A stretch of DNA of 46,868 nucleotides from Candidatus Thorarchaeota archaeon (GCA_048884925.1 JBHLQK010000001.1:1-46868), one strand, 5' to 3'; positions 7,206-43,526 are shown, counted from the stretch's first letter. The notes: a model not told the origin generated them from the sequence alone. A program made the numbers and translations.

Positions 7206-7217
7206 GAACACGTGTTC
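7206..7217. promoter_or_regulatory. perfect 12-bp palindrome GAACACGTGTTC, copy 1
   Basis: Exact match read from the sequence. Sits in the divergent tRNA-Pro / deacetylase intergenic region. Confidence 0.7.
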
Positions 7218-7295
7218 GAATAGATGACGACTCATTGGTTTCGGGGTCTACACTTATCTACGGGAAATGAATCAAGCAGACAAAGGGGTGTAGTA

Positions 7296-8351
7296 ATGAC
7301 CACGGATCTCCTCTATCATGAAATATTCACTAAGCACGTGATGTCACCAAGTCATCCGGAAAGTCCTGAAAGATTGTTGTCGGCTATGAAACACATCCGA
7401 GAAACTGGCCTTCTTGAGGAATCCAAAGTCAATGTGGTCGAGGGCATCCCTGCCAATCTAGATTTGATTCATTCTATTCATGGAAAGCAGTACATAGATA
7501 TGGTCAAATCCAAGTCTGAGAGCGGGGGTGGGTATTTTACACTGGACACTGCTGTCAACAAATACACCTATGATGCCGCAATGATGGCTGCTGGCGCTGG
7601 CACATTGGCTATGGACAGAATCATGGAGGGCACCTCTAATAATGCATACGTGTTGTGTCGCCCACCAGGACATCATGCAGAATATGATAGAGCCTTCGGT
7701 TTCTGTTTCATCAATAATGTGGCTGTTGCAGCGAAACATCTCATTCAACAACACGGAGTACAGAGAGTGCTGATTGTGGACTATGATGCCCATCATGGAA
7801 ACGGAACCCAGAATGCATTCTACACGAGCAATCAGGTCCTCTATATAGGGCTTCATCAGGATGGGCGAACCCTCTTCCCAGGCTCGGGATTTCCGGATGA
7901 GATTGGAACCGGAGAAGGAAAGGGCTACAATGTCAATCTTGCAATGTATCCGGGAGCTGGCGATAGGTCCTATGACATTGCATTTTCGGAAATCGTGGAA
8001 AAGATCAGCGAGTCATATAACCCCGAGTTTGTGCTTGTTTCATGCGGTTTTGATGGACACTTCAGTGATCCGTTGACTGTATTGGGTTTGACCACCTCTG
8101 GAATGGCAATGATGAACTCTAGACTAAATTTAATGGCAAAGAGTTTCTGTGGGGGAAAATTGGCATTCTTCCTTGAGGGGGGCTATGATCTTGATATTGT
8201 AGGAAAGTGTTCACGTAATATTATAGAAGAGCTCAGTGGTACCGAAGTAACATCATATCCCGATACACATGATGAGAGTGAGAATTGTACACAATACACA
8301 AGAGAGCTCATTAATAGGTTAAGAAAAAGTCTGAGTGGTATTCACTTCTAG
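7296..8351 (+). CDS. histone deacetylase-family protein (HDAC / acetoin utilisation / acetylpolyamine amidohydrolase type)
   Basis: RPPGHHA, FCFINNVA, DYDAHHGNGTQ and GGY motifs. I prefer the ATG at 7296 (AAGGGGTG upstream) over the start at 7224. Confidence 0.85.
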   Translation: MTTDLLYHEIFTKHVMSPSHPESPERLLSAMKHIRETGLLEESKVNVVEGIPANLDLIHSIHGKQYIDMVKSKSESGGGYFTLDTAVNKYTYDAAMMAAGAGTLAMDRIMEGTSNNAYVLCRPPGHHAEYDRAFGFCFINNVAVAAKHLIQQHGVQRVLIVDYDAHHGNGTQNAFYTSNQVLYIGLHQDGRTLFPGSGFPDEIGTGEGKGYNVNLAMYPGAGDRSYDIAFSEIVEKISESYNPEFVLVSCGFDGHFSDPLTVLGLTTSGMAMMNSRLNLMAKSFCGGKLAFFLEGGYDLDIVGKCSRNIIEELSGTEVTSYPDTHDESENCTQYTRELINRLRKSLSGIHF

Positions 8352-10603
8352 TCATTCTCGATTTCAAAGTCCTCAAGAAGAGTCTGAATTGAAAAAGAGT
8401 CTTGGTCGTCTTCAGACTCAATAAGAATAGCTTCGTTTTCCGTAACGGGTAAGTCTACTCCAAGCTGCCGCTTTATTGATCTAGCTAAGGAAGTACCTAT
8501 TGTTGGTATACGGGCGATTTTTTCAAGCGATGCATGATAGAGATCAGACTGATTCTTCAAACCATTGGCGTATAACATCCTACCCCTTATACGACCGATT
8601 CCTCTGAGGCGGACGAGGTCCAACAGCTCTTTTTGTACGCCATATTTGAGACGAAACCGAAGGTTGTAGAGCAATGCAATGTGTTGGGTAGCATTGATTA
8701 CTTTTGCAATCTCTGATGCTGAATAAACTAACCACTCTGCAGTCTGGACATACCTGTGAACATCACCCATACCAACACTAAATCCTTCAGTAATCTCACG
8801 TTCCGAACTCTCAGAAATCCACTCTTCCAGCAGTCGTGCTGTCTTCACTTCTGCAAGATACTGTCCATAGTCCTCCATCTCATCTATTGGTGGTTCAATC
8901 ATGAAATCATTACTGTGTTCTTCGACAAAGTAGTCATACTCGTCAAATTCAGATCTTGTCAGGTAGGTAATTTGCTGGTCAGGAGTGTGGCATATGAGAT
9001 GAAGGGCACCAATGGTAGTTACTTCTTTGGCTTCAGCGAGAACATCACGAAGCAGTATGGCGGTATAGGGATCAATGTATAGTCTAGATGCCCTCTTGCC
9101 CAAAGGAGTGGCGGAATATACACCAGATTCTGTACAATCAATCAATCGGCCATCTTGAAGGAAAATCAGTGCAGACGAAACATGGTGTTGGATTTCAAGC
9201 GGGTCGAATTGGTATGAGAAGAATGTGCCTTTGATTAATGAGTCAACTTCCTCTCTGTTCCGTGTCATCTCAGTAGCAATAGATGCCAGCAGATGAGAAC
9301 GTAGAGCAGACGGTGACGCGAGCTTTGATGTGATTCTCTCTGGCTCAGCTAACACGTACTCATCTGTAAGCGAGTCACGCTCTTGCTCGGATTTCGCAAT
9401 GAGTATTGCCTCTCCATAGCTATCATATTTTGGCCGTCCGGCTCTTCCTGCCATCTGTTTGTACTCAAGGACAGGAATAGTATAGCTACCTCTACCTTGT
9501 TCAAAGCGGCGATAGTCACGAATGATAACACGTCTGGCTGGCAGATTTACACCAGCAGCGAGTGTAGGAGTTGCTATAACGACCTTCAACATGTCATCTT
9601 TAAAGAAGTCTTCAACAAGGGTCCTTTCACTGTTGTCGAGTCCAGCATGGTGAAAGGCCACTCCTGAAGCAATAACCCGAGCAAGCGTCTTTGTTGCTTC
9701 TGGAGCTGAGGGTCTTGCAGACAACTTCTTAGCTGCTTTTGTCAGCTGTTTTAGTGCATCTACATTGAGGTAAGGACGAACCGACGAAGCGATCTTCTTG
9801 GCGACGGCAACAGTCGATCGTCTACTTGATACAAAAACAAGGGCCTGACCCTTTTCTTCCAGAATATCACAGACCACATCACCAACTATCTCAGGTCGTC
9901 TTCTCGGAATGGACTTGGAGCTGCCATCAAGAATAAATGATATCTTGTTATCAAAATATACCCCTTCTCTCAAAGGCACCGGTCTCCATGTACTTGTGAC
10001 AAGTTCCGCATTCAACCACTCAGCAATTCTATCTGAATTGGAAATTGTAGCGCTTAATGCCACAATTTGTACATCTGGAAGGCCCTGCATCATTTTGGCG
10101 ATAAGCATTTCCAAAGTGGGACCGCGATTTGAGTCATTAACCAAATGGACCTCATCTACAATAATGATTCCTGCTTCTTCAAGCCATTGAGTCTTATGAC
10201 GCACTAATGAGTCAGCTCTTTCTGTGGTTAGTACAACTATGTCAGCGTCTTTGAGACGTGTACCTGGAGAGTCATAGTCCCCTATGGACATCGATATAGT
10301 AATTCCTAGTGATTCGTATTTCTTGAATTCAGAGTACTTCTCTCGTGCAAGTGACCGCAATGGAACAAGATACAGTGCTTTGCCACGACCTTCCAGAATG
10401 CTCTTGAGCATGCATATCTCAGCTACTAACGTCTTTCCAGCACTTGTGGGAACAGCCAGAACAAGGTTCCTGCCTTCCAATACTCCCGTATTAAATGCAG
10501 ACATTTGAGGTGGAAAGAGTGTAGATATTCCATTGTCTTGAAGCAGTTTGATGACCTTCTTGTTTATCGATAAGCTCTCAAGTTGCGTTTCGGTCATCTC
10601 CAT
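8348..10603 (-). CDS. hel308: Ski2-like DNA helicase Hel308/Hjm
   Basis: 751 aa. AVPTSAGKT (motif I), DEVH (II), SAT (III), HHAGL, QMAGRAGR (VI), then the winged-helix/ratchet/HhH C-terminal region typical of Hel308. Confidence 0.85.
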   Translation of the reverse strand: MEMTETQLESLSINKKVIKLLQDNGISTLFPPQMSAFNTGVLEGRNLVLAVPTSAGKTLVAEICMLKSILEGRGKALYLVPLRSLAREKYSEFKKYESLGITISMSIGDYDSPGTRLKDADIVVLTTERADSLVRHKTQWLEEAGIIIVDEVHLVNDSNRGPTLEMLIAKMMQGLPDVQIVALSATISNSDRIAEWLNAELVTSTWRPVPLREGVYFDNKISFILDGSSKSIPRRRPEIVGDVVCDILEEKGQALVFVSSRRSTVAVAKKIASSVRPYLNVDALKQLTKAAKKLSARPSAPEATKTLARVIASGVAFHHAGLDNSERTLVEDFFKDDMLKVVIATPTLAAGVNLPARRVIIRDYRRFEQGRGSYTIPVLEYKQMAGRAGRPKYDSYGEAILIAKSEQERDSLTDEYVLAEPERITSKLASPSALRSHLLASIATEMTRNREEVDSLIKGTFFSYQFDPLEIQHHVSSALIFLQDGRLIDCTESGVYSATPLGKRASRLYIDPYTAILLRDVLAEAKEVTTIGALHLICHTPDQQITYLTRSEFDEYDYFVEEHSNDFMIEPPIDEMEDYGQYLAEVKTARLLEEWISESSEREITEGFSVGMGDVHRYVQTAEWLVYSASEIAKVINATQHIALLYNLRFRLKYGVQKELLDLVRLRGIGRIRGRMLYANGLKNQSDLYHASLEKIARIPTIGTSLARSIKRQLGVDLPVTENEAILIESEDDQDSFSIQTLLEDFEIEND

Positions 10604-10620
10604 TGCAAAGCCTAATTCTA

Positions 10621-12693
10621 CTAGCTTTTGGGTGGCAGTCGTATAGTGCCCTCGCCTTTGGGTCTATATACCGCACCCTCCTCTACGAGTCGTGCTATTA
10701 TTGTTTCAGCTCTCTCTCTGGGTAAGCCCTTGACCTCTAATCTCTGCAGTAACTCGACCTCACTTTCCGAACCATCAGATTCCATTTCCTTGAGAGTATT
10801 GATAATAGTAGCTCTAGCGCTTCTTTGTGAGGCACTTTCCTGTGAAACTAGACGATCAATGTCAAGCTCGCCAGTTTCAACATCAAAAGCTACTCCTTGT
10901 AATGACGCAGTCATAAGGGCTACAGCTGCTTGGCCGTCCTCTTTAGTGACGTTCTTTCTCAAAGCCATTTTTGCTCGAGCTTCTGCAAGGCGCACTAAGG
11001 ACTCCAGCTGCCGAGCAGTAATTGGTACAGGTGCAGCCCCTCCTTCGGCCCTCTTTCGGAGACCCACGTAGAAATCCTCAATTGCCTCAGCGGCCTCTGG
11101 AGACAGTTGAGGAATAACGTTACGGTTAGCATATCCAATATACTTCTTTAAGAGAGCTGGAGGTATTGGAGCTGTTTCGTCTGTTGTTTTCTTTGGCTTC
11201 CCCTGATGCAGATCCAGAATGAATCTTGCCAGCTCCTTATCACGCTCTTCGTTTGGGGTGTCAATCATGACCCAGACCAGGTCAAATCTGGACAATATTG
11301 TGAAGGGTAGTTTGATATTTTCCTGAGGGGTCCATGATGTTTCATATCGACCAAGTGTTGGATTTGCCGCAGCTAGGATTGAAGTGCGTGCATTCAATGT
11401 AGCAACAATACCTGCCTTTGCTATGCTTACAGTATGTTGTTCCATTGCTTCATGTATTGCTGTTCTATCATTTGGGTCCATTTTATCAAACTCATCGATG
11501 CATGCAATCCCTTGATCTGCCAAGACCAATGCTCCAGCTTCAAGTGTCATAGCTCCACTATCAGTATCATGGATAACGGCTGCCGTCAGGCCCGCAGCAG
11601 TGGTACCCTTTCCAGATGTGTACAAGGCTCTGGAAGCAAGACCTGAAACGAATTTTAGAATCTGGCTTTTTCCTGTACCGGGATCACCAACCATCAGAAT
11701 GTTCGACCGCCCTCTCAATCGAGTTCCATCTGGCAGTATCTTATCGACCCCGCCAAATAGAAGGAGTGAGATGGATTGTTTTATTTCGTCATGGCCTTGT
11801 ATTGCAGGAGCGATTGATCTGTAAATCTTCTCATGGATGTACGGATTTTTAGACAATTCGTTTATTGCTTTCTCATCCTCTTCGGAAATTTCGAGTTGCT
11901 CGTATTCCTTCTCGGCAATTTCTACACCATTTGCCTCGATGAACACATTGAAGGTGGCTAGCTTCCCACCCCTCCTAGAGAAGTCAGGGGTAGTCTGTAG
12001 CAGCCCAGTCACCTTGACCATGTCACCAGGTCTTGAGATATCTACAATGTCCCCTTTTAGTACCACGTCAACTGATCGAGGCATCTGGCCCGGAGGAAGC
12101 TCCTCAGGAGATTCCTGTATTCGAACCTTTTGCCAGTCTATGAACCGCGACTTCGCAAGCAATAGTTTCATTGGGGTCTTCTTCCCACAGGTAGAACACA
12201 ATGGAGGTTCGGTGTATCGACCTTCTTCTTGTTCTTGAGGAATTTCAGCCATGCATACTCTACATTGGAATGTAGCATTGACCAATAGTGGCTTGACCTC
12301 ACTTGCACGCATCATGATGCCGCTTATGCGAATAAGCTTCCCAATATGTCGTGATCTTATGTGTCTAAGAGGAACATTCTCGCTGTAGTTTATGATACGA
12401 ACTTGCAGCCCGTCATGCCCAATTGTACCTACATACTCAGGGTCTTCAATTCTGAGAAGAGAAACTAAAGCGTTATGAGCCATCCTAAGAAATGTCTGAG
12501 GGTCTTCTGTGGCAAATGCCATGAACACATTATCAAATCCAATAAGATCCTGGAAATCTACAACCAATGAAGATACGTCATCGATGGACATCTGTTGAAC
12601 TCTAGACCAGTAGACTGTACTCCCCTGTTCATCCTTGAAAGTGCGGATGAACTCTTCAAATCTCTCCTGTTCAGTTTCCATTTCTAATGTCAT
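10621..12693 (-). CDS. mcm: MCM replicative helicase
   Basis: N-terminal OB/zinc motif (CRVC...CSTCG), Walker A GDPGTGKS, Walker B CIDEFDKM, arginine finger SRFDL, and a C-terminal winged helix. I prefer the ATG at 12693 over the GTG at 12708. Confidence 0.95.
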   Translation of the reverse strand: MTLEMETEQERFEEFIRTFKDEQGSTVYWSRVQQMSIDDVSSLVVDFQDLIGFDNVFMAFATEDPQTFLRMAHNALVSLLRIEDPEYVGTIGHDGLQVRIINYSENVPLRHIRSRHIGKLIRISGIMMRASEVKPLLVNATFQCRVCMAEIPQEQEEGRYTEPPLCSTCGKKTPMKLLLAKSRFIDWQKVRIQESPEELPPGQMPRSVDVVLKGDIVDISRPGDMVKVTGLLQTTPDFSRRGGKLATFNVFIEANGVEIAEKEYEQLEISEEDEKAINELSKNPYIHEKIYRSIAPAIQGHDEIKQSISLLLFGGVDKILPDGTRLRGRSNILMVGDPGTGKSQILKFVSGLASRALYTSGKGTTAAGLTAAVIHDTDSGAMTLEAGALVLADQGIACIDEFDKMDPNDRTAIHEAMEQHTVSIAKAGIVATLNARTSILAAANPTLGRYETSWTPQENIKLPFTILSRFDLVWVMIDTPNEERDKELARFILDLHQGKPKKTTDETAPIPPALLKKYIGYANRNVIPQLSPEAAEAIEDFYVGLRKRAEGGAAPVPITARQLESLVRLAEARAKMALRKNVTKEDGQAAVALMTASLQGVAFDVETGELDIDRLVSQESASQRSARATIINTLKEMESDGSESEVELLQRLEVKGLPRERAETIIARLVEEGAVYRPKGEGTIRLPPKS

Positions 12694-12856
12694 GATTATT
12701 CCGAACACTCCGGATTTGGTCCTAGTGATGTCACACGACTCTCACACTATGTCTGTGGGGTCAGATATTAAAACCCGCTCTCGTTAGTTGTGAGTGGTCC
12801 TTTTTAACTCTGCCAGAGCTGTGTAGGATTTGTCCGAGTTGTAATTTATGAGGATT

Positions 12857-13417
12857 CTATTCCGTCACCATTTCGCGCCAAGTAGAGAGGAGAATACCAA
12901 GCTCGTCGACAAGCCACCTTTCTTCCAGTGCCATCTGTTTACGCCTATCCTGATTTGCGCCGGACTTGGCAACGCGCATTATCTTGGATAAACGATTTTC
13001 GACCAGAATTCGAAGCATCCTTCGTATCTTCTCAATCTCGTCATGAAGTCGAGGGTCTATTGAGGTTTTATCACTCTGAAGTTGAGTCATCTTTCTGATA
13101 AGTGCGGAATAGAGCAATGGAGGAAATACCTGCAATTTGTGGGGCTGCTTTTCCTCAGCATTATACAGGTTCTGAAATCGTCTAAGTGATTCATATGCCT
13201 CTGTGGCATCCAATTCAACAAGATTATGTGCAACAAGCCTTTCAATCACCCAATTCTGAAGTTGTGTCGTCGTTCCAGCCTTGAACGGGCCAAGTTTTTC
13301 TCCACCAATTCTGATTTCAGGTACATCCTCTCGAAAAGTGCATGTGCGTGTTTCGTTCAGAAACTGTATTACAAAACGCTCCTTTACTGTTTTGATATCG
13401 CGTTGGAAAGTCATCAT
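12857..13417 (-). CDS. GINS-family subunit (B-domain then A-domain order, Gins23-like), tentative
   Basis: About 186 aa. N-terminal beta-rich segment (IRIGGEKLGPFKAGTTTQLQNWVIERLVAHNLVEL) followed by a helical domain (RLSKIMRVA). It sits immediately upstream of mcm, which is the known GINS-MCM linkage. Confidence 0.5.
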   Translation of the reverse strand: MMTFQRDIKTVKERFVIQFLNETRTCTFREDVPEIRIGGEKLGPFKAGTTTQLQNWVIERLVAHNLVELDATEAYESLRRFQNLYNAEEKQPHKLQVFPPLLYSALIRKMTQLQSDKTSIDPRLHDEIEKIRRMLRILVENRLSKIMRVAKSGANQDRRKQMALEERWLVDELGILLSTWREMVTE

Positions 13418-13611
13418 GTACACACTTATCGATTGAGTGGCATACCATAAAGAGCTTGTTCTAGAATACGGAAATATAGTGCTCCTTTTAGTCCAGTAAG
13501 AGTGTTCTATGGTAGAGTAAGGTTATAGCTTCAAGTGAATCGATGCTTCCGGAGAAGCTTTTAAGAGCACTAGAAGATTGTCACCGCAGTCTACGACGGG
13601 ATGGGAATCGA

Positions 13612-14568
13612 ATGGATTTAGACCTCTGGACAGAGAAATATCGCCCTCCCACACTAGGAGGAATTATTGGGCAAGAATCAATCATTGAGAGTCTGACAAA
13701 GTTTGTACAGAATAGGAATGTGCCGCATTGTCTGTTCACTGGACCTCCAGGCACAAGCAAGACCACAGCTGCCATGGCGATGGCAAGAGATCTCTTTGGA
13801 GATACTTTCGACCGCAACTTTATGGAATTAAACGCGAGTGATGAGAGGGGTATTGATGTCGTTAGGAACCAAATAAAGAACTTTGCCAGAATCATGCCAT
13901 CTGGTGATGCTCCATTTAAGATTCTGGTCTTGGATGAAGCAGACCATCTCACTGCCGACGCTCAACATGCCTTGAGACGGACAATGGAATCGTATGCGGG
14001 CTCATGCAGAATGGTGTTGATTTGCAACTACTCCAGTAGGATAATTCCACCGATTCAGTCTAGGTGTGCGATATTCAGATTCGCACGTTTAAGCGATAGC
14101 TCAATTACTGAAAGACTGAATTATATAGCAAAGAAAGAGAAGATTTCTGCCAATGCCGCCGGAATTCAGGCAATACTATACCTTGCCGAAGGAGACATGC
14201 GAGCTGCCATCAATCTCCTTCAGGCCTCTGCATCTGCGGGGGAGAAAGTTGATGATAGAGTAGTCTTTGCAATTGCAGGTAGAGCAAATCCAAATGCGAT
14301 TAAGGAAATGTTGGATTCCGCAGGTGAAAACTACGAGAACTCTCTAGAAAAGCTAAGAGCGCTTATCTATCAGCAAGGAGTTTCACCCGTAGATTTGGCG
14401 AGACAACTACATAGAGAGGTACTGAAACTGGACATTTCCGAAAATCGAAAGATGGCAATTCTTGAGAGAACTGCAGAAGCCGAGTTCAGGATAGGAGAGG
14501 GAGCAAGTGGGGAGGTTCAGCTGAGTGCACTATTGGCTCACATAGGACTGGAACGGGGTGAATCATGA
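13612..14568 (+). CDS. rfcS: replication factor C small subunit
   Basis: WTEKYRP box, GPPGTSKT Walker A, LDEADHLT, SRC motif (QSRCAIFRF). I prefer the ATG at 13612 over 13543. Confidence 0.9.
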   Translation: MDLDLWTEKYRPPTLGGIIGQESIIESLTKFVQNRNVPHCLFTGPPGTSKTTAAMAMARDLFGDTFDRNFMELNASDERGIDVVRNQIKNFARIMPSGDAPFKILVLDEADHLTADAQHALRRTMESYAGSCRMVLICNYSSRIIPPIQSRCAIFRFARLSDSSITERLNYIAKKEKISANAAGIQAILYLAEGDMRAAINLLQASASAGEKVDDRVVFAIAGRANPNAIKEMLDSAGENYENSLEKLRALIYQQGVSPVDLARQLHREVLKLDISENRKMAILERTAEAEFRIGEGASGEVQLSALLAHIGLERGES

Positions 14569-16584: not shown

Positions 16585-16600
16585 CTGATGGCCCTCTTAG

Positions 16601-16906
16601 TTATGACTGCCATAGTCCAAACAGATTTCGCAAGGCTCGCGCCCTGTGGTCCTCTATTCGATAGCGGTAGATTTTGATCCGCCCGAACATCTTCTCCTCG
16701 ACTAGACCGGATTCGATAAGCACTTCGAGATGTGATTTGGTCGAGCTATGATTCAAAGAAACTCTCCTGCAGAGTTCGGATATATTCAGCTCGCTGGAAG
16801 TAGCCAGCTCTTTTAGTATCTTGATTCTCCCTCTCGAAGAGAATAGCTCCTCGATTGGCACTCGAAACCTATCATCAGCGTTATTCAAAATCATGAAAAC
16901 CCCCAT
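16601..16906 (-). CDS. small winged-helix (ArsR-like) DNA-binding protein
   Basis: About 101 aa. RGRIKILKEL...LNISELCRRVSLNHSSTKSHLEVLIESGLV is an ArsR/SmtB-type wHTH. Its ATG overlaps the cdc6 stop (TGATG). Confidence 0.7.
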   Translation of the reverse strand: MGVFMILNNADDRFRVPIEELFSSRGRIKILKELATSSELNISELCRRVSLNHSSTKSHLEVLIESGLVEEKMFGRIKIYRYRIEDHRARALRNLFGLWQS

Positions 16907-18099
16907 CAAGTAAGCAAGTCGAGTAGATGCTGTTCTAACATTTCAGCTGGTACATCAGAGAGTCCTATCAGAGTTGTCTGGCCTCTCTGTCCAACACCAG
17001 AACGTTTTGTATCTAGAAGTCCATGAGCATTTAGATCTTGGACCCACTCCCAGACCTGGGTATGAGCCCTTGGCTCTTCGTTGTACTCCTCACATATCGG
17101 ATGATACATCTCTTCGAGCTCGCCCATTGTGATATAGGCACCCCGATTCTCCTTGAGTTGTCTTGCGGCTGCTAGAAGTAGAAGCATGTTCTGTCGTGGA
17201 AGAGCCGCAAACAGCTCCTTCCTCAATTCAGGATGTGTGTCGGCCTTAGCCTTACGGGCATAATCAGGAATCACTTTTCTGGAATTTTCACTGTCAGCCT
17301 GCTTCCCTGCACGCCATAGAAGTTCGATTGCATAACGAGCATCTCCACGTTCTGATGCAATGTCACAGATGAGTTGTAGTGTTTCATCCATGACTACATC
17401 GTGGTCGAATGCAATGTCAGCTCGCCCCTTTAGAATGTCATATAGAGCGTCAGAGGTGTATTGGTCAAACCGGAGAACGTTTCGCTGAAGTGTACTTAAT
17501 GTGCTTTGGTCCAGTATACTCTCATCGAGAGGTATCTTTCTTCCCACTCCTATCACGGAAAGACGCTGAGGCGCATTCAATCGATCATCCATTAGTCGGG
17601 TCAAGTCGTAGAGAATGTCGGCACCTCTCTGTTTAATGAAATAGTCGAGTTCGTCAAGTATTAGTAGAAGATACTTGTCTTCTTCATCAAGTACCTCAAC
17701 AACCATTTGGAGGATTTCTTCCGGTGAGTGACCTCGCCGAGGAAATCTTGGTTTAAACTCCCTCAGCATCCGCAGATACACAAGATAGGTGCTCTTGTTC
17801 ACTCGGCAATTTATGTGCAGATTGTGCAGATTTATGCCCCGTCGGGTTGCTGCTTTTACCATTTGATCCGCGAAACGCTTAGTCACAGCTGTTTTTCCAG
17901 TTCCTACTGGACCTTCAATGATGAACTTCTGACTTGTATGGCCTGGAGAGGCGATTAGTGTCTTGAAACTTTGAGCAAGTGTTCTTAACTCAGGCTCCCG
18001 ATGTGGAAGGGTCTCAGGAACATAATCGATGGAAAGCAATTGCTCCGATTTGAATACACTCTGTCGACTCAGTTCGTCTTCCACATAGTCATGCGTCAT
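16906..18099 (-). CDS. cdc6: Orc1/Cdc6 replication initiator
   Basis: 397 aa. LPHREPEL, Walker A GPVGTGKT, Walker B LILDELD, and a C-terminal winged helix (GRGGQTTLIGL-like RSGVGQRGQTTLIGL). Confidence 0.9.
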   Translation of the reverse strand: MTHDYVEDELSRQSVFKSEQLLSIDYVPETLPHREPELRTLAQSFKTLIASPGHTSQKFIIEGPVGTGKTAVTKRFADQMVKAATRRGINLHNLHINCRVNKSTYLVYLRMLREFKPRFPRRGHSPEEILQMVVEVLDEEDKYLLLILDELDYFIKQRGADILYDLTRLMDDRLNAPQRLSVIGVGRKIPLDESILDQSTLSTLQRNVLRFDQYTSDALYDILKGRADIAFDHDVVMDETLQLICDIASERGDARYAIELLWRAGKQADSENSRKVIPDYARKAKADTHPELRKELFAALPRQNMLLLLAAARQLKENRGAYITMGELEEMYHPICEEYNEEPRAHTQVWEWVQDLNAHGLLDTKRSGVGQRGQTTLIGLSDVPAEMLEQHLLDLLT

Positions 18100-32094: not shown

Positions 32095-32147
32095 TCATCT
32101 CGTTTGGACGGGTTCACACTTATGGACATTGTTATCTTAGATTGCAG

Positions 32148-32159
32148 GAACACGTGTTC
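32148..32159. promoter_or_regulatory. perfect palindrome GAACACGTGTTC, copy 2 (14 bp with its G/C flanks, 32147-32160)
   Basis: Exact match, in the divergent IPK / S10 intergenic region. Confidence 0.7.
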
Positions 32160-32181
32160 CAAGTCACTCCACAAGACAACC

Positions 32182-32189
32182 TTTTTATC
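32182..32189 (+). promoter_or_regulatory. TATA-like box (TTTTTATC) for rps10
   Basis: 22 nt downstream of the palindrome and about 52 nt upstream of the S10 ATG. Confidence 0.3.
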
Positions 32190-32240
32190 CGAATGAAATT
32201 CCGTTGCGTCATCCACCTCGTAGACGAGGCTGAACCTATA

Positions 32241-32552: not shown

Positions 32553-32632
32553 ACCGCTTATTGTCATCTACACAACCCTTTTTGGTGGATAGTGATTGTT
32601 GTTTATCCATAGTGAGCACGAGGACCTTGTAG

Positions 32633-34456: not shown

Positions 34457-34501
34457 GGACCTTAAATCCCTATTAATGAGAATATTTAATGTGTGAAATC
34501 A

Positions 34502-34750: not shown

Positions 34751-34764
34751 AGCTTGATGGGCAA

Positions 34765-35979
34765 TCATAGGAGTTCCTTGATAATCATCCTAAGTGACTC
34801 AGCCAGTCGATCAATGTCCTCTATCGTATTGTATGCATGTAGTGATATCTGAACAAGTCCCTCCTCCGAGAACGGTTTGATTAATGGGTGGGCACATACC
34901 AAACCGCTTCTGACCGCAATATTAGACTCATCCAGGAACAGGGCAACCTCATGACAGTTGATTCCGTTTCCGTTTCCTATGTTGAATCCAAAAATGGTGT
35001 TTTTCTTGGTAGGATTACCGTAGAGAGTGATTCCCTCTATATCGTTTAGAGTGTCAAACGTGTGGGCTGCGAGTGCATCCATATGCTTGAGCTGGCCCTG
35101 ATTTCTGATTTCTCGAAGATAATCAAGTGAAGCGCCAAGACCTGCTATTGCGGGAAGATTTAGGATACCTGATTCGAATTTATCTGGTTGAAGAGCAATC
35201 TCAAATGATTCAGGTTCAACATTAGCCACTGCAGAACCACCGAGTATACCAGGCTGATGGATATCTCCGAGATTCTTTTGAATCCATTGAAGTGCTAGAC
35301 CTGGAGGAGCCATCAAGCCGATATTAGCTGAACAGATTGCTATGTCGGCCTGTAGGGATGAAAGAGTAGCATCTGTTACCCCCACAGATCTTGTTGCATC
35401 AGTTATGAACACAGCCTCGTGCTCTTGGCAGATTTGGGCCACTTCTTGAAGTGGATTTCTCACACCAGCCCCTACAGTTACATGACTGACCGCAACAATT
35501 CCTGTTTTAGCATCTATAGCTTGGTCAAGACCTGATAAGTCCAAGATACCATCTGGGGATATTGGGATTGTTTCAACTTCAAGATTAAGTATCTGAGCAA
35601 CTCTTAGGAGTGTGACAAGAATTGAATGTTCTTCACTCTGGGCAATTACAATCTTCTTCCGATTAGTCCCTTTCCAGTCAAACCCGTATGCAAAAGATGC
35701 AACTGCAGTTGGGATGGATTTCTGGAAAGAAATCTGTGAGTTTTCAGTGCTGATAAAGTCTGCTAGAGACTTGCGAACGTCTTCAGTCATTGAGCTGGCA
35801 TCCACAGCCAGTCTGTAAGCACCTCTTCTTGCGGATGATACTGTTGAATTGAGAAAAATCTGTGTTGCATCAACAGCAACCTTAGGAACCAAGGTAGTAC
35901 TTGCTGAATCGAGATACACAAGTTCTGGTTCCATATCATAAACGCCAAAATCTGATTTGATGTCCATCGTTGCTGTCAT
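34765..35979 (-). CDS. class V aminotransferase-fold protein, cysteine desulfurase (SufS/NifS)-like
   Basis: YLDSASTT, SHVT, ITDAT, and the Cys loop RSGLVCAHP. The expected S-x-H-K PLP-lysine motif reads S-A-N-I (DNA 35320-35331). The start is uncertain (ATG at 35979 or GTG at 35994). Confidence 0.75.
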   Translation of the reverse strand: MTATMDIKSDFGVYDMEPELVYLDSASTTLVPKVAVDATQIFLNSTVSSARRGAYRLAVDASSMTEDVRKSLADFISTENSQISFQKSIPTAVASFAYGFDWKGTNRKKIVIAQSEEHSILVTLLRVAQILNLEVETIPISPDGILDLSGLDQAIDAKTGIVAVSHVTVGAGVRNPLQEVAQICQEHEAVFITDATRSVGVTDATLSSLQADIAICSANIGLMAPPGLALQWIQKNLGDIHQPGILGGSAVANVEPESFEIALQPDKFESGILNLPAIAGLGASLDYLREIRNQGQLKHMDALAAHTFDTLNDIEGITLYGNPTKKNTIFGFNIGNGNGINCHEVALFLDESNIAVRSGLVCAHPLIKPFSEEGLVQISLHAYNTIEDIDRLAESLRMIIKELL

Positions 35980-36033
35980 AATCAGTTTGTACACGGAGGT
36001 CTCTTTAATTGTTGGCTTTGTGTTCAGAACTTG

Positions 36034-37059
36034 ATGAATTCTTTGAGTACTGTACCTATTGAAGGTTATTTCATTATGACCAATGATGGTCTTTTATTCG
36101 AGGTTAAAGGCGTCATCCATCCCAAAAACAGGATTATCGCATATCTAAGATACATCCAAGATGAAGAGGGAGACCGCCAGTCAGAAAGGGGTGTTAAATT
36201 CAGAAAAGTGTACAACCTGAGTGATCGAAACGAGATCCTCCGCACAAAATATCAACAGTATCTCTGGTTCGATGAGAAACGTGGACAACAATTTCAAGCA
36301 GTCCCGATAGAACGTATCTCATTTGTTTTGAATCCAACAGACGGCCTGCGACAGCTTCTCGATATGGGATCACATGTCACAGATTTACAGAGGGCTTCTT
36401 GCAGTCTTGCTGAACTCCTTGTAGATAAGGCTGATTTGGATTGGTCAGACATTGGAATCACAGGGTCTCAACTTGTTGGACTTCCAAGTAAAAAGTCTGA
36501 CATAGACCTCGTCGTTTTCGGGTCAAAACCTGCAAGAAAGATTCACAGTTTACTTAAGGCCAAATTGGATTCATTCCTAGAAATAGAACAGTACCATGGC
36601 GACCGATTAAAACGCCATGTGAAATTCAGATGGGAAAAACACGAACAATGGATGAAACTATTACAGATGATTGAAAGCCAGAAAGTCTTCCAAGGATTGT
36701 TCAGGTCATATGACTTTTTCATCAGAGCAGTCAAGCTTCCTGAAGAGATAGATTACAATTATGAAGATCTGGTGATTCGAGATGAAGGCATTCAAACAGT
36801 AAGCTGTGTCGTTGTGGATGACTCTGATTCGATATTCACTCCGTGCATTTATACTGTAGAATCTGACGATATGACCGAACTACAGAATCTGATTAGCTTT
36901 CGTGGGAGGTTCACAGAACATGTTTTCGCAGGTGAAACAGTTGAAGCACGAGGAAAGCTAGAAGTGGTGACCAATTCGAACACAAATGAATCGTTCACTC
37001 AGTTGGTCCTTGGAGAGGATCCATTGGACTATCTGATGCCAATTAAGGACATTCACTAA
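36034..37059 (+). CDS. pol-beta-superfamily nucleotidyltransferase with OB-like C-terminal domain (archaeal COG1665-like, tentative)
   Basis: GITGSQLVGLPSKKSDIDLVVFG is the G[SG]-x(9-13)-D-x-D NTase signature. The C-terminus has GETVEARGKLEVV beta-rich sequence. Confidence 0.55.
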   Translation: MNSLSTVPIEGYFIMTNDGLLFEVKGVIHPKNRIIAYLRYIQDEEGDRQSERGVKFRKVYNLSDRNEILRTKYQQYLWFDEKRGQQFQAVPIERISFVLNPTDGLRQLLDMGSHVTDLQRASCSLAELLVDKADLDWSDIGITGSQLVGLPSKKSDIDLVVFGSKPARKIHSLLKAKLDSFLEIEQYHGDRLKRHVKFRWEKHEQWMKLLQMIESQKVFQGLFRSYDFFIRAVKLPEEIDYNYEDLVIRDEGIQTVSCVVVDDSDSIFTPCIYTVESDDMTELQNLISFRGRFTEHVFAGETVEARGKLEVVTNSNTNESFTQLVLGEDPLDYLMPIKDIH

Positions 37060-37502
37060 AGATAACGCATTCACTTCATTAACAAGTTTTCACAGTGATT
37101 ATGTGTGAATGGCGCCCTTTTTGTGAACAGCTTTAGCGAAAGAGTGTTCAAAGGGTCTTAAACGGTGCAAGAAGAAATCATAACCCTCCTTAGGTGTGTG
37201 AATGAAGCCACCCCTTGACTTCCAGTGGAACTGGACAAGAAGAGATATGAAATGCCTATCACCTCATTCACAAAGCACATATTCTAGTGAATAGGAGATG
37301 GTTTGAACAATACCCTCCTTTTTGAAAAATAAGAGCTCATAACGCTTCTTTTCTCATTTATTGACTGCACAAGCTGCCAGCACACAGATATCAATACGGA
37401 CGTGTTCTGAATACGTATAGGCGCATTATGTTGCCGTTATCTCAGTATTGCTAATTCACATACTCACACTTATTTGGTTGCAGTCTGTAGTTCGTTGTGA
37501 AT
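37051..37502. repeat. cluster of eight GTGAAT/ATTCAC hexamers (mostly TGTGAAT/ATTCACA)
   Basis: ATTCAC at 37051, 37069, 37266 and 37454. GTGAAT at 37105, 37198, 37287 and 37497. About 0.2 copies would be expected by chance in 450 bp. Confidence 0.6.
37209..37230 (-). other. origin-recognition-box (ORB)-like element, copy B
   Basis: Minus strand reads TTCCACTGGAAGTCAAGGGGTG, which is 19/22 identical to the copy at 41424-41445. It has the same TCCA-NN-GGAA / 4 nt / GGGGT layout as archaeal Orc1/Cdc6 ORBs. Confidence 0.55.
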
Positions 37503-38170
37503 ATTATAGTGGGTATGAATGCCCGAAGGTCTTGGTGGAATACTTGAAGTCTGAAGATCGTACAAATTACGTCTATCGATTCACATACAATTCGGGACCA
37601 GGACTGAGAGAGGTATTCCAGTGTAAGTATGTCAAGCCTGATGAGGCATTGACCAGATTCCAGAGAATTCTGTCCTTGACCGATGAACCCTTTGATTTCA
37701 AAATTGTAGTGATTGATGAATCAAAAAGAGAGGAGTCTAGTTTTGAAGTAGAGGGTGGTAGTGTAAAGGAAATGATTGAGAAGTTTAGAGTTTTCTTGGA
37801 AGCAAGTACGGGCATCTTGTTTGTAGAAGAAAAGGAAGATGTCGAGGTTGAGTTTGAGGAAATTAACTTCGAATCGATGAGTAGCTTTGAAAAAATGCAC
37901 ATAGTAATTTATGCATCATTCAAACATGGAAAATTCTCCTCACTTGACGTTGCTGAGATATATGAAGCAACATTCAATGAAGATTTGCCAAAGAGTACCG
38001 CATCTACATACCTGGCTAGAATGTGGAATGATGATAAGGGGCATCTTGAAAGATACGGCAATCGTTCCGGCTATACATACAGACTCAAGACAGAAATTTC
38101 AGAGGTTCAGAAAGAAACTGAAAGAGCCGAAGATATTCTTGCTTCGATTCAGATGCATGTTGGTAAATAG
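37448..38170 (+). CDS. hypothetical protein with C-terminal winged-helix domain
   Basis: 240-aa ORF with no in-frame ATG near the 5' end (TTG at 37448 or 37475). An acidic linker (EEKEDVEVEFEE) is followed by LDVAEIYEAT...STASTYLARMW..GHLERYG..GYTYRLK, which is wHTH-like. Confidence 0.5.
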   Translation: MLIHILTLIWLQSVVRCEYYSGYECPKVLVEYLKSEDRTNYVYRFTYNSGPGLREVFQCKYVKPDEALTRFQRILSLTDEPFDFKIVVIDESKREESSFEVEGGSVKEMIEKFRVFLEASTGILFVEEKEDVEVEFEEINFESMSSFEKMHIVIYASFKHGKFSSLDVAEIYEATFNEDLPKSTASTYLARMWNDDKGHLERYGNRSGYTYRLKTEISEVQKETERAEDILASIQMHVGK

Positions 38171-38192
38171 TATGGCTCTCTTTGAGTGATTT

Positions 38193-39512
38193 CTATAGCT
38201 TGACAGTATGTTCTTCTAATCTGATATCCAGCGCTTCTAATTCCTTTAGAATTGGCTCATAGACCTCTGACATCACTGGTCGATGCACTCCAATCAAATC
38301 TATAGACCCTTCAAGAATCATCCTACTAGCGATTGCCACGGGAAGAGCAACCGTTCTAGACATGGAAGAATCACCGTTAGGTATGCCGTAGTCAATCATT
38401 GTAGACGTGATTTTCTCTTTTCGATCTTGATATTCCGCAATGAACTCGTGGTGCATGACAATCATGTCACGTTCACCAGGAGCATACTTCAGTTTCTGCT
38501 CAAACAGATTGCATACTGAATCGAGGTATGTTGTGACGTTAGAAGGAATCTCTTGGTTATCGAATAAACCTAGCCAGTCAAGACGCTGGATTATGGGGTC
38601 ATCGTTCTTGAGACCGATCATCCTCGCGGTAGCATCTACTGGAGATTCAGAACTATCCGCCTTGGTCAGCTCACTCATCATCTCAGCATAGGTCATTCCA
38701 GTGAAACTTCGTTCTTCAATGGATAGGAGACCAAGGTCCGCCACTTTCTTGAGCGTACTACACCAGCCAAGGTTTCTGAAAGTACCCCTTTGCATGGTCT
38801 TGGTTTCTTCGATACCGTAATAGTCAATGAAAGGCAGACTGTCACGATTGGGGTAACCCTCGAATTTTCCCATCCTAGGCACTTCCATTATTTTGTAATG
38901 ATCAAAGAGTTCAGGACCTGGGATATTGATTATTTCCCCATCATGCAAAAACTGAGCATCGTTACGACCAGCAAGAAGAACCCCTCGTGGACTCCATGAG
39001 AGCTTGTATCCGAATGGATTATCATTGGCATCCGGAGCCGGAAGACCTCCCGTGAAGGATGTCAAACTGACAATCTTCCCGCCTTGATTGTGGATATGAT
39101 CGATAATTTGCATAGCACTCATGTGATCAATGCCCGGGTCTACTCCACATTCATTTAGAATGAGGATTCCTGCGGCTCTGGCTTCTGCATCCAATTCTTT
39201 CATCTCATCAGAGATATAGGAGGTAGTGCAGAATGGTTTTTGATACTTGATAGCAACTCTGGCTGCTTTCACATGGTAAATATAGGGTAGAAGAGAACAA
39301 ACCAAATCAGCTTTCGAGGTCAGTTCATCAAGAAGATCGTCATCTGTCATTATGTTGAAAGTTACAACTTCAGCATTCTTGCACCCTTCAATGAGTAGTT
39401 CAGCTTTGCTTTTGGTTCTACTAGCGACCACAACATGAAAGCCATGATCGCTCATATACTGGACGTAAGGACGAGCCACAAGGCCTGCTCCCAGACAAAG
39501 GACTTTCTTCAT
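38193..39512 (-). CDS. saccharopine dehydrogenase/reductase (SDH half of AASS-type enzymes)
   Basis: KKVLCLGAGLVARP Rossmann motif, GVDPGIDHM, SFTGGLPAPD and YKLSWSPRGVLL. These match the SDH domain of animal/plant LKR-SDH as I recall it. Confidence 0.85.
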   Translation of the reverse strand: MKKVLCLGAGLVARPYVQYMSDHGFHVVVASRTKSKAELLIEGCKNAEVVTFNIMTDDDLLDELTSKADLVCSLLPYIYHVKAARVAIKYQKPFCTTSYISDEMKELDAEARAAGILILNECGVDPGIDHMSAMQIIDHIHNQGGKIVSLTSFTGGLPAPDANDNPFGYKLSWSPRGVLLAGRNDAQFLHDGEIINIPGPELFDHYKIMEVPRMGKFEGYPNRDSLPFIDYYGIEETKTMQRGTFRNLGWCSTLKKVADLGLLSIEERSFTGMTYAEMMSELTKADSSESPVDATARMIGLKNDDPIIQRLDWLGLFDNQEIPSNVTTYLDSVCNLFEQKLKYAPGERDMIVMHHEFIAEYQDRKEKITSTMIDYGIPNGDSSMSRTVALPVAIASRMILEGSIDLIGVHRPVMSEVYEPILKELEALDIRLEEHTVKL

Positions 39513-39514
39513 AG

Positions 39515-40831
39515 CTAGTTCTCCTCTCGTGATAGATATTCTTTCAGATACTCGTATTCTTTGGTTAAGTTTCCTTGGTATACAATCACAGCATCTTTGA
39601 GCTCTGGGGGTAGTTCGAGCTTATCAAATGGAACCGCGAAATCTGCCTTTGCCAGCGCAGGGATGTAGTCCAAAAGGGTTTCGCTAAACGAGGTTGAAGA
39701 CTCTAGTGGTAGTTCAGTGGGAAGATTATCAACAGCCATAACTACTGGTCCCTCTCCTTCCACACCAGATTCTGCTCTATTCTCTTCTACTAAGTAAGTA
39801 AAAGCAGGGCTTCCAGGATTAGTTGTTCTAACTGTGAACTCAATTGCGCCATCGACATCACAGGATATATCACCAATGACCTCGAGTCGTCGATTCTTGT
39901 CCTTCCAGTGATTTCGAATGAATTCAATTGTTATGAGGCGGGGATACTTCTCAGTCCAATAGATACAGTTCATAACAACTGCCATATATGGAACATAATC
40001 GTGAAAAACTCCCTGATACTTTGTGGCACCATATGTATAGTAGTCTTGAAGGTCAAATTCTACCCCCTGTTCTTTTGGTTTGACCATATGTTCTTCCTTG
40101 AATACACATTTGTATAGAATATTCGATTTTCGACTGGATATCTTGAATAGTTGACTTGGTTCCACCTTTTCGTAGGGTAAGATATCAAAAATTTTTTGTG
40201 CACCGCGTGAAACGTTTCCGTATCCAGCAAAGCCGACTACAAACGGAATCATGGTTTCTGGCAAGCCTACTTCTGTTATTCTTTCTCCAAGGAGTTTGAA
40301 TTGTTCCTTAAGCTCCGCAAGGTCCTTGCATTCAAGAGTAGGCTTCAAATCAGCAAAAGGATTTGGAGTAATACCCTTGAACTCTAACCGTCTTCCTAGA
40401 ACCCTAAATGTGTCAGATATCCCGGCCATTCCTGCCCAGTTACCAAAGAAAATCAGACGCCTCCCATTCTCATCAATTACACGCTCATAGTCTATGAGTG
40501 TAGCACCCACATCAATGATTTGTTGGAGCATGTCCATGTTACTTTCTTGCCCCTTGACTGTATGACTGAAAAATATGTACACTTTATCTTTCTCGAAGAA
40601 ATTGACAGGCATCTCTTTGATTCCAAGAACCACAGTAACTTCACTTCCTTTTAGGGGCTGAATCTCTGCACCTACTTTGGTGAAGTCATCAGTGGTGTAG
40701 GAACGTTGATCACTAGGTTCCACGACAAATCGAATATTGTGCTTACCTACAAGATCAGCAATATGTTTGGGTACAAGAGGTACTCTTGACTCGAACGGTT
40801 TCTCTTCACTGCGTAGTCCGATAGTGTTCAT
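39515..40831 (-). CDS. lysine-ketoglutarate reductase-like (LKR half of AASS; AlaDH/PNT fold)
   Basis: IGLRSEEKPFESRVPLVPKHI, FFSHTVKGQESNMDML, LIDYERV, FGNWAGMAG, GYGNVSRGAQ, NCIYW, ISCDVDGAIEF and VDNLPTELP parallel the human AASS LKR domain. I prefer the ATG at 40831 (AGGTAGGAG upstream). Confidence 0.8.
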   Translation of the reverse strand: MNTIGLRSEEKPFESRVPLVPKHIADLVGKHNIRFVVEPSDQRSYTTDDFTKVGAEIQPLKGSEVTVVLGIKEMPVNFFEKDKVYIFFSHTVKGQESNMDMLQQIIDVGATLIDYERVIDENGRRLIFFGNWAGMAGISDTFRVLGRRLEFKGITPNPFADLKPTLECKDLAELKEQFKLLGERITEVGLPETMIPFVVGFAGYGNVSRGAQKIFDILPYEKVEPSQLFKISSRKSNILYKCVFKEEHMVKPKEQGVEFDLQDYYTYGATKYQGVFHDYVPYMAVVMNCIYWTEKYPRLITIEFIRNHWKDKNRRLEVIGDISCDVDGAIEFTVRTTNPGSPAFTYLVEENRAESGVEGEGPVVMAVDNLPTELPLESSTSFSETLLDYIPALAKADFAVPFDKLELPPELKDAVIVYQGNLTKEYEYLKEYLSREEN

Positions 40832-40937
40832 CTGGGAGCTCCTACCTGATTGGAGAGGGTATTCCGCGTGGAACACTTCATCTGGATTAACCTTTCCATC
40901 TTAGAATCGACTATTGTATTACTAAGTCTGAAAATGC

Positions 40938-40949
40938 GAACATGTGTTC
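40938..40949. promoter_or_regulatory. near-perfect palindrome GAACATGTGTTC (one mismatch), copy 5
   Basis: Read from the sequence. It shares the 3' flank TAAT with copy 4 and lies about 107 nt upstream of the LKR start on the other strand. Confidence 0.5.
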
Positions 40950-41254
40950 TAATACTCATGCCATCTAGCTTCCTTTACATCTATGATTGTAGACGTGCAC
41001 GTGAAACCAATGCGCGGCGTGTTTCATTCACAAAGGAACTCTATGGGTATATCTATACCTGGAAAACGAAAACCGGAATTAAGCAAAGAAAAAAGGCTGG
41101 TCTCATTGATACGTCGGAAGGGGCATATGCAGTGGCAGACTCTGCAATATTGGTACCTGCTGAATACAGATCTCTGTTCGATTCCTTATTTGCATCATAC
41201 TCAGACATATTGAGAGCTAGAATATTTGAGGTGATAGGAGAAGCTCAACCATTG

Positions 41255-41266
41255 GAACACGTGTTC
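41255..41266. promoter_or_regulatory. perfect palindrome GAACACGTGTTC, copy 3
   Basis: Exact match, 12 nt to the left of ORB-like copy C. Confidence 0.7.
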
Positions 41267-41278
41267 TAGTATCCCACA

Positions 41279-41300
41279 TACCCCTTGGTTTCCATTAGAA
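41279..41300 (-). other. ORB-like element, copy C (more degenerate)
   Basis: Minus strand reads TTCTAATGGAAACCAAGGGGTA, which is 17/22 identical to copy A. It is inverted relative to copy A. Confidence 0.45.
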
Positions 41301-41368
41301 ACTTTTGAAAGTATCGATACGTTTCGAAAAAGGCAAGTATAAATAGTGGTTTGCGTAGCCCGCATTCA

Positions 41369-41423
41369 TCTCCATTTTATCATATCATATTTTCACCGCC
41401 CGGGGATCTCTCCATTTTATCAT
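41369..41423 (+). repeat. 15-bp direct repeat TCTCCATTTTATCAT x2 (41369-41383 and 41409-41423)
   Basis: Exact repeat read from the sequence. The second copy abuts ORB-like copy A. Confidence 0.8.
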
Positions 41424-41445
41424 TTCCAGTGGAAATGAAGGGGTG
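41424..41445 (+). other. ORB-like element, copy A
   Basis: TTCCAGTGGAAATGAAGGGGTG has a TCCAGTGGAAA dyad core, a 4-nt spacer and a GGGGT G-string. This is the same architecture as the Aeropyrum/Sulfolobus/Pyrococcus ORBs. Confidence 0.6.
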
Positions 41446-41497
41446 CCAGTGCATAATATCTGGGTATAGGGTACACCAATATATGCTAATATTCCTA

Positions 41498-41509
41498 GAA
41501 CACGTGTTC
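41498..41509. promoter_or_regulatory. perfect palindrome GAACACGTGTTC, copy 4 (16 bp with its TA flanks, 41496-41511)
   Basis: Exact match, 20 nt upstream of a TATA-like box and 123 nt upstream of iorA. Confidence 0.7.
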
Positions 41510-41529
41510 TAATGTAGTACATGTATTAC

Positions 41530-43524: not shown

Positions 43525-43526
43525 AA

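Follow-up and report, generated by a model that had tools for sequence, protein, structure and literature searches.

Why should one short palindrome recur beside the promoters of heterogeneous genes in an archaeal genome? This question is raised by a 46,868-nt stretch of DNA from Candidatus Thorarchaeota archaeon (GCA_048884925.1 JBHLQK010000001.1:1-46868; the whole stretch is called the window below), in which an earlier note, made from the sequence alone, had reported an exact 12-mer, GAACACGTGTTC, at positions 7206, 32148, 41255 and 41498, together with a one-mismatch copy, GAACATGTGTTC, at 40938. The note read the five as one candidate operator or upstream activating site, shared by the promoters of tRNA-Pro/deacetylase, IPK/S10, LKR-SDH and IorAB. 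All five copies are where it placed them, and the gene identities (deacetylase, S10, LKR/SDH, IorAB) hold in Pfam. The three copies assigned to LKR-SDH and IorAB, however, in fact surround a small gene that the note missed and an inverted pair of origin recognition boxes (ORBs); we refer to these copies as PAL1, PAL2 and PAL3, in order of position (Table 1). Weighing the evidence set out below, we lean, with moderate confidence at best, towards the palindrome being the site of a homodimeric, sequence-specific DNA-binding protein that would regulate these promoters and is probably coupled to a replication origin. The sequences themselves show the palindrome, its dyad symmetry, its conservation and its geometry; binding by a protein, which protein that is, activity of the origin and the direction of regulation are inferred from them.

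Shape and conservation of the palindrome

With one mismatch allowed, the window holds five matches to the palindrome against 0.07 expected, and none of 100 dinucleotide-shuffled sequences reached five. An alignment of 255 unique copies extends the site to an 18-bp dyad, TTRGAACACGTGTTCYAA, with information confined to positions -3 to +14; more than 3 nt from the palindrome, on either side, the flanking DNA shows no conservation. Variation among these copies is almost all C-to-T or G-to-A at the central CG, and the sequence is invariant rather than covarying; position -1 is A in 51%, G in 40% and C in 6% of copies, and about 40% of them read GGAA-N6-TTCC. The extension GTGTTCTA(A/G)T, which had been described as shared by three copies, is found at 40938, 41255 and 41498. 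Two other claims of the earlier note did not survive inspection. The copies are not all intergenic, as the one at 41255-41266 encodes the last residues (..LEHVF*) of the open reading frame (ORF) 40958-41269. The proposed half-sites occur at chance level, with 20 GAACAC and 16 GTGTTC in the window against about 11 of each estimated from base composition, some five of each count belonging to full copies.

To follow the site beyond the window we scanned one genome per species, which returned 66 Thorarchaeota loci, themselves kin to one another. Every one of the 66 carries the palindrome (at most one mismatch) around the small gene, so that conservation in related metagenome-assembled genomes is borne out. 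The copies recur about 30 bp before the small gene (usually as GAACATGTGTTC), directly past its stop codon and 210-300 bp further on; three to five copies occur at the predicted origin, an extra one being present in some loci. In the 1.13 Mb of loci, 215 copies fall inside the module made up of the small gene and the ORBs, compared to five outside it. A perfect dyad with unconserved flanks, kept at orthologous non-coding positions across dozens of species, is how a protein-recognition site would be expected to behave, and it is from this behaviour that we infer binding by a protein.

A perfect palindrome, one copy of which lies at the 3' end of a gene, might also be the end of a miniature inverted-repeat transposable element (MITE), another dispersed repeat or an RNA hairpin or terminator. 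We consider any of these very improbable. The earlier note had named a dispersed repeat, or equal frequency inside genes, as what would overturn a regulatory reading; we found random flanks and orthologous positions. Since the flanks lack conservation and the positions are orthologous in 66 species, the palindrome is not a MITE-like mobile repeat. The RNA hairpins predicted at the copies have weak folding energies (from -3 to -7.6 kcal/mol, with z between -1 and -2), no covariation is seen, and neither the palindromes nor the origin region of the window match an Rfam family. Furthermore, the copy beside the deacetylase gene lies upstream of both divergent TATA boxes; it is therefore probably untranscribed and must act as DNA. 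Literature searches on the 12-mer, on Asgard origins and on Thorarchaeota regulatory motifs found no description of the palindrome; the papers in which the 12-mer string does occur are unrelated (primers, and a review of the S. aureus SOS response).

A predicted origin flanked by the palindrome

Within the 230 bp that separate the 41255 and 41498 copies lie two inverted ORBs, 145 bp apart. Their core sequence, TTCCAGTGGAAATGAA, matches the core of Pyrococcus ORB1 over 16/16 nt, and the Pyrococcus ORB1 sequence is bound by Cdc6/Orc1 (PMC1904270). Each of the 66 Thorarchaeota loci has the inverted pair, with a start-to-start distance of 140-152 bp, and the DNA between the boxes is AT-rich, with a mean GC content of 29.8% against a locus mean of 43.1%; it is the lower of the two in 67/67 loci, and in the window itself the values are 37.6% and 43.9%. 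In Sulfolobus oriC1 the corresponding region, ORB3-DUE-ORB2 (DUE, duplex-unwinding element), measures about 130 bp (PMC12141716). We predict from the ORB-DUE-ORB arrangement at 41280-41444, which has the layout of an archaeal oriC1, that this is a chromosomal replication origin. For Asgard archaea, our literature searches turned up no publication in which a replication origin had been mapped by experiment. The region between the boxes also contains an exact 15-bp direct repeat, TCTCCATTTTATCAT, at 41369-41383 and 41409-41423, the second copy of which abuts the right ORB.

The palindrome keeps close to this pair. It is present within 150 bp on both sides in 65/70 loci, and in 55/70 at least one of the two ORBs has a copy 10-15 bp beyond its G-rich end. 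The gaps between palindrome and ORB show a sharp mode at 13 bp (45 gaps): the 13-bp copy is on the left in 32 of 67 loci and in the mirror arrangement on the right in 15, and clades with such a copy often hold a second one nearer the stop codon or the iorA promoter. The placement at 13 bp, either left or mirrored right, together with the second copies, argues for a coupling to the ORBs and not to a promoter alone.

Further support comes from more distant relatives. Homologues of the small gene were found in four other lineages, including Jordarchaeales and one labelled only Promethearchaeota, and in all four the gene lies 0.2-1.6 kb from orc1/cdc6 and from the gene for the PolD small subunit (DP1), the classical surroundings of an origin in archaea. 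ORBs and the palindrome (GAACA[CT][GA]TGTTC) accompany it in Jordarchaeales, where the palindrome reads GAACATGTGTTC or GAACACGTGTTC, and in the other three lineages, where it reads GAACATATGTTC. In one of these (locus L111) a palindrome lies 15 bp outside the first ORB and another 10 bp outside the second, and the association of ORB and palindrome persists where the flanking genes differ. Because orc1 stands beside the module in the distant lineages, the Thorarchaeota appear to have parted it from an otherwise ancient arrangement. The Jordarchaeales locus L108 has some features of its own: an AT-rich stretch of about 400 bp (5560-5960) between the winged-helix-like and small genes is studded with GTTAAC palindromes and has an extra ORB-like box at 5817, and two tandem copies of the palindrome (6288 and 6307) directly follow the small-gene stop codon.

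At the promoters the copies take up two kinds of position. PAL1 precedes the ATG of the small gene by 8 nt and follows a conserved TATA-like GTATTAC at a distance of about 21 nt, and a copy in this position (up to two mismatches) is found in 63/66 Thorarchaeota loci. With these spacings it should overlap the predicted transcription start, which is an operator or repressor-type position and not that of an upstream activating site as favoured by the earlier note. The idea of an upstream site does fit the copy between the deacetylase and tRNA-Pro genes, which is upstream of both TATA boxes; the spacings to the TATA-like boxes of tRNA-Pro (20 nt), rps10 (22 nt) and iorA (20 nt), read from sequence, are as the note had them. 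In 34 of the 41 loci returned by a metagenome scan with the deacetylase the palindrome is present as the sole copy, and these loci reach as low as about 60% protein identity. It always has a TATA box on either side: that of tRNA-Pro (AAGATAAAC on the plus strand), mostly at 19-24 nt, and that of the deacetylase (TTATC), mostly at 25-40 nt. The tRNA-Pro gene itself is missed by ARAGORN and Rfam in the window; in locus L093 ARAGORN does report a tRNA-Pro(GGG) there, immediately before the deacetylase gene, and the 5' end and TATA box of the tRNA gene are conserved in the alignment of deacetylase loci. The rps10 copy is present in just 3 of 50 S10-carrying loci, those of the window's close clade (L004-L006), and this restriction points to a recent acquisition. 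The idea of one operator for heterogeneous promoters is thus borne out at the deacetylase/tRNA-Pro site and falls short at rps10. Downstream of PAL3, the iorA-iorB synteny is kept in 61-62 of the 66 loci.

GTATTAC/GTAATAC heptamers, often paired (for example GTAGTACATGTATTAC), occur in the window at 40916-40922 and 41513-41529; their conserved positions are some 21 bp before PAL1 and immediately past PAL3, the latter also in L012, L014, L022, L041, L045 and others. The heptamer could be either a lineage-typical variant of the TATA box and B recognition element (BRE) or the site of another factor. It is not enriched across the window (six copies against 3.9 expected).

Could the palindrome be a transcription-factor operator and nothing more, acting on the small gene, iorAB, LKR-SDH, deacetylase/tRNA-Pro and, in one clade, rps10, with its proximity to the ORBs incidental? 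The distances to TATA boxes are regular, at 20-22 nt for the window and, in the case of the tRNA box of its relatives, mostly 19-24 nt; this is in keeping with such a role, as is the lack of an ORB near the deacetylase site. We nevertheless judge it unlikely, somewhere near one chance in a handful. PAL2 stands at the 3' end of the small gene without an evident promoter, with exactly 13 bp to the ORB in 32/67 loci; the mirrored 13-bp copies (15/67) and the second copies nearer promoter or stop codon also speak against a pure operator, and the ORB-palindrome association survives a change of flanking genes in other lineages.

A number of observations weigh against the coupled reading that we prefer, and some of them are what a pure operator would lead one to expect. 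The spacing between palindrome and ORB is not fixed, as gaps of 13, 24, 42, 56 and 62 bp all occur, and in the distant lineage represented by L113 the ORB pair has no flanking palindromes. The copies flanking the origin could simply serve the two flanking promoters, and the counts given above are not independent, since the loci are phylogenetically related. The promoter copy of the small gene is missing in Jordarchaeales and in three Thorarchaeota loci. A distance of 23 kb separates orc1 from the ORB pair in the window, and no ORB adjoins the gene. GC skew over the 47-kb window is uninformative and if anything peaks, not troughs, near 38-41 kb: the cumulative curve climbs between about 12 kb and about 38 kb, then levels off or declines, with its turning point near the predicted origin, in a window that is too short, with gene orientation as a confounder and a sign opposite to the bacterial convention. 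Lastly, the small protein has no recognised DNA-binding fold, its Foldseek matches against the PDB being weak and ferredoxin-like only (Cas2, Lrp-RAM, CutA and S6; E at least 0.03, TM at most 0.46).

Proximity to an origin also brings to mind centromere-like (parS-like) sites of chromosome organisation, loaded by a small adaptor for segregation. All copies in the window are within 35 kb of the ORB pair, three to five copies sit at the origin beside a small conserved gene, and bacterial parS is likewise a palindrome, of 16 bp, with a CACGTG centre. The arms of the two palindromes differ, however, and no ParA/SegA ATPase or ParB-like gene is present among the Pfam-annotated neighbours in the window or related loci, and the precise placement relative to TATA boxes and the small-gene start points to transcription. 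We consider a role in segregation improbable.

Candidate binding proteins and a possible mechanism

If a dimeric protein reads the palindrome, the small protein of about 95 residues is most likely the one, and it is probably autoregulated. We name it as leading candidate because its gene is the only one with the palindrome over its own predicted start, and gene and site are co-conserved across Asgard classes; its basic charge (pI 9.1), confident model and invariant residues also count in its favour. The gene is real, with 92 homologues at 52-91% identity and 23 invariant residues, N, R, K and W among them, and those homologues with a named source are all labelled Thorarchaeota or by another Asgard name (Promethearchaeota). 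By these homologues the window belongs to a thorarchaeotal genome close to SMTZ-45. It always lies near ORBs and/or orc1-dp1. The homologues stop about seven residues earlier than the protein of the window, whose C-terminal tail is not conserved, so that in them the palindrome usually falls just past the stop codon. An AlphaFold2 model of high confidence (mean predicted local distance difference test score, pLDDT, 89.7) has the order beta-alpha-beta-beta-beta-beta-alpha-beta. No credible match was found in Pfam, in NCBIfam or in a hidden Markov model (HMM) search of PDB sequences, and an exhaustive profile search yielded just 16 clusters at 50% identity. Three long multi-repeat profile matches (P0105, P0106 and P0108) were treated as spurious because the only Pfam domains present in them are unrelated (fibronectin type III, M23 peptidase, extensin-like).

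A second candidate is a winged-helix regulator, with the small gene just one of its targets; this would be compatible with the coupled reading. Dimeric winged helix-turn-helix (wHTH) proteins are classical binders of 16-18-bp dyads, and the small protein is without a known DNA-binding fold. Two candidates come into question, the family encoded at 37538-38170 and an ArsR/TrmB-type protein of about 100 residues (16601-16909). The former, to which one of three HTH proteins named in the earlier note (37448-38170) belongs, is about 210 residues long in Thorarchaeota and 151-167 elsewhere; it is homologous to genes beside the small gene in L108, L111, L113 and L115 and is co-conserved with that gene in all five lineages examined. 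The winged-helix-like C-terminus is read from the sequence pattern and secondary structure, with an AlphaFold2 model of low confidence (pLDDT 55); the HMM search of PDB sequences with this family found nothing, and a weak match to CopY/TcrY (E = 0.047) is a lead only. Genes for small wHTH proteins of ArsR/TrmB type are found in the vicinity of orc1 or of the small gene: in L113 and L115 the small gene is adjacent to TrmB/HTH_20-like genes, and the window has an ArsR-like gene after orc1. The ArsR-like protein of the window, however, has no detectable similarity to the wHTH proteins of L113 and L115, and no gene but the small one has the palindrome over its own predicted start. We regard a winged-helix binder as a possibility to be entertained with some doubt.

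The DNA upstream of the 37538-38170 family carries another motif instead, TGTGAA/TTCACA, both in Thorarchaeota and in L111, and this suggests that the family recognises that motif and not the palindrome. In the window the motif belongs to a very strongly conserved non-coding block (about 37089-37275), present in about 53 of 55 Thorarchaeota loci, with the layout TTCACA-N9-TGTGAATGGCGCC-N5/6-TGTGAA, then some 70 bp, then TGTGAAT-N6, a lone ORB and N37-TTCACA. In L111, too, the homologous gene is preceded by TGTGAAT boxes (5090-5500). The block could be a second regulatory or origin element. The simplest assignment, judged from these motif positions, would have the winged-helix-like protein reading the TGTGAA boxes and the 95-residue protein reading the palindrome.

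How might such a binder act? We postulate a homodimer with the 18-bp dyad as its recognition site. When bound at the small gene, the dimer would block recruitment of RNA polymerase, which would amount to autoregulation if the small protein is the binder. At deacetylase/tRNA-Pro, at iorA and, in one clade, at rps10 it would act from upstream of BRE and TATA box, and the deacetylase/tRNA-Pro site could be an activator or an architectural position. At the predicted origin the dimer would sit directly behind ORB-bound Orc1 and might stabilise or restrain the initiator; alternatively, it might shield the origin from transcription leaving the small gene. One factor would thereby set the transcription of these genes and modulate or insulate the use of the origin. 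A bolder version, which we put forward tentatively and think doubtful as it stands, is an undescribed Asgard-specific origin-control system, in which a dimer of the small protein, stationed 13 bp behind ORB-bound Orc1 on either side of the origin, would keep its own gene repressed and take part in regulating the histone-deacetylase-type enzyme.

Relation to known systems and surrounding features

The predicted origin resembles archaeal oriC1 of Pyrococcus and Sulfolobus in its two inverted ORBs, each with the conserved core and a G-run, around an AT-rich region of about 125 bp, and the ORB pair of the non-Thorarchaeota Asgard lineages lies beside orc1/cdc6 and dp1, as in Pyrococcus. It differs from archaeal oriC1 in that the Thorarchaeota pair is remote from orc1 and is abutted by the conserved small gene, and in the extra 18-bp dyad that brackets the pair, which goes unmentioned in the origin papers we found. 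Another short conserved non-ORB element at replication origins is ucm of Sulfolobus, which lies inside the DUE, is bound by a monomer of UBP and has more than 300 genomic sites; UBP is a small basic protein of 111 residues that binds elsewhere in the genome too and affects origin function (PMC12141716). Unlike ucm, the palindrome is outside the ORBs, is a perfect dyad and is rare (the five copies outside the module in 1.13 Mb). No similarity of the small protein to UBP was seen among the top 50 Foldseek matches in the PDB or in the HMM search of PDB sequences.

In bacteria, promoter factors that also bind oriC, such as CtrA, Spo0A, MtrA, AdpA and Fis/IHF, couple initiation to physiology or the cell cycle. 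Together with the ucm/UBP pair they are the nearest analogies in function. The palindrome is like their sites in being found both in promoters and at an origin, a functional link that would be our proposal here; it differs in the domain of life and the protein families, and the bacterial sites usually lie among the DnaA boxes. Archaeal palindromic operators include the GGAA-N6-TTCC of NrpR, the Thermococcales glycolytic motif (TGM) of the TrmB family and that of SurR, whereas the Cheo/LexA box, CGAAC-N4-GTTCG, is bacterial. With the archaeal operators the palindrome shares its form, a dyad of 12-18 bp either over the transcription start (repression) or upstream of BRE/TATA (activation). Unlike the NrpR site it has an invariant inner CACGTG outside the NrpR consensus, and its target genes are unrelated to nitrogen or sugar regulons. 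Its core, GAAC-N4-GTTC, equals the inner part of the Cheo box. We rejected that identity because the flanking base is A or G and almost never C; archaea are not known to have LexA. The parS/ParB system shares the CACGTG-centred palindrome and the few copies near an origin, and is set apart by other arms, the lack of ParAB or SegAB genes nearby and the promoter-relative positions seen here.

Palindromic operators are a known kind of element, and so are accessory elements of ORB-type origins; of this particular element, its relation to the ORBs and the two associated families of proteins no description seems to exist. Asgard archaea matter for understanding how eukaryotic replication control arose. 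The analysis locates a candidate oriC (ORB-DUE-ORB) that is strongly conserved in Thorarchaeota and other Asgard lineages, and adds to it an accessory element, new and likewise conserved, as well as two uncharacterised families of proteins linked to the origin. The palindrome is the first phylogenetically footprinted regulatory motif for the phylum in the searches we made, and one of its conserved targets is the deacetylase gene; if the small-protein system is as proposed, the licensing or firing of the origin would be tied to chromatin acetylation in organisms related to the ancestor of eukaryotes. The 18-bp site (DNA form TTGGAACACGTGTTCCAA), the 95-residue protein and the winged-helix-like protein are directly testable reagents.

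Table 1. Positions in the window of the palindrome copies, the predicted origin and the genes and promoter elements discussed
Feature	Coordinates	Strand	Remarks
Palindrome copy, deacetylase/tRNA-Pro	7203..7220 (core 7206-7217)	.	between divergent promoters
Palindrome copy, rps10	32145..32162 (core 32148-32159)	.	clade-specific
PAL1, GAACATGTGTTC	40935..40952 (core 40938-40949)	.	one mismatch; before small gene
PAL2	41252..41269 (core 41255-41266)	.	3' end of small gene; 13 bp from G-rich end of left ORB
PAL3	41495..41512 (core 41498-41509)	.	53 bp outside right ORB; 20 nt upstream of iorA TATA-like box
Small gene	40958..41269	+	103 aa here, ~95 aa in homologues; basic, pI 9.1; no known family
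Left ORB, ACCCCTTGGTTTCCATTAGA	41280..41299	-	inverted orientation
AT-rich inter-ORB region	41300..41424	.	candidate duplex-unwinding element, from GC content
Right ORB, TCCAGTGGAAATGAAGGGGT	41425..41444	+	core TTCCAGTGGAAATGAA
iorA TATA-like box, AAATATATAT	41530-41539		20 nt from PAL3
iorA-iorB, indolepyruvate:ferredoxin oxidoreductase	41632..44141	+	Pfam; downstream of PAL3
Intron-containing tRNA-Pro(GGG)	7041..7149	-	read from sequence
tRNA-Pro TATA-like box, AAGATAAAC	7177-7185		serves minus-strand gene; 20 nt from palindrome
Deacetylase TATA-like CTTATCT	7253-7259		36 nt after palindrome
Histone-deacetylase-family gene	7296..8351 (probable start ATG 7296)	+	Pfam Hist_deacetyl, 5.9e-92
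rps10 TATA-like box, TTTTTATCC	32182-32190		22 nt downstream of palindrome
ArsR-type wHTH gene	16601-16909		start overlaps end of orc1/cdc6 (16906-16909)
orc1/cdc6 initiator gene	16906..18099	-	Pfam
Lone third ORB	37210..37229	-	inside conserved non-coding block upstream of winged-helix-like gene
Origin-linked family, winged-helix-like C-terminus	37538..38170 (ORF from 37448)	+	rival candidate binder

The gene order around the predicted origin is rigid in some 50-60 Thorarchaeota species (L001-L066, compared with 32241-46496 of the window) and reads S10-glmS-aminotransferase-nucleotidyltransferase-wHTH-like-SDH-LKR-small gene-origin-iorA-iorB-hypF. Elsewhere in the window, a cluster of replication genes (8348-18099) encodes a Hel308-like helicase, MCM, GINS and the small and large subunits of RFC, followed by a pseudouridine synthase. 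Two further tRNA genes were each called by one program, tRNA-Gly(CCC) at 18352-18426 on the minus strand by ARAGORN only and a tRNA at 25209-25282 on the plus strand by Rfam only.

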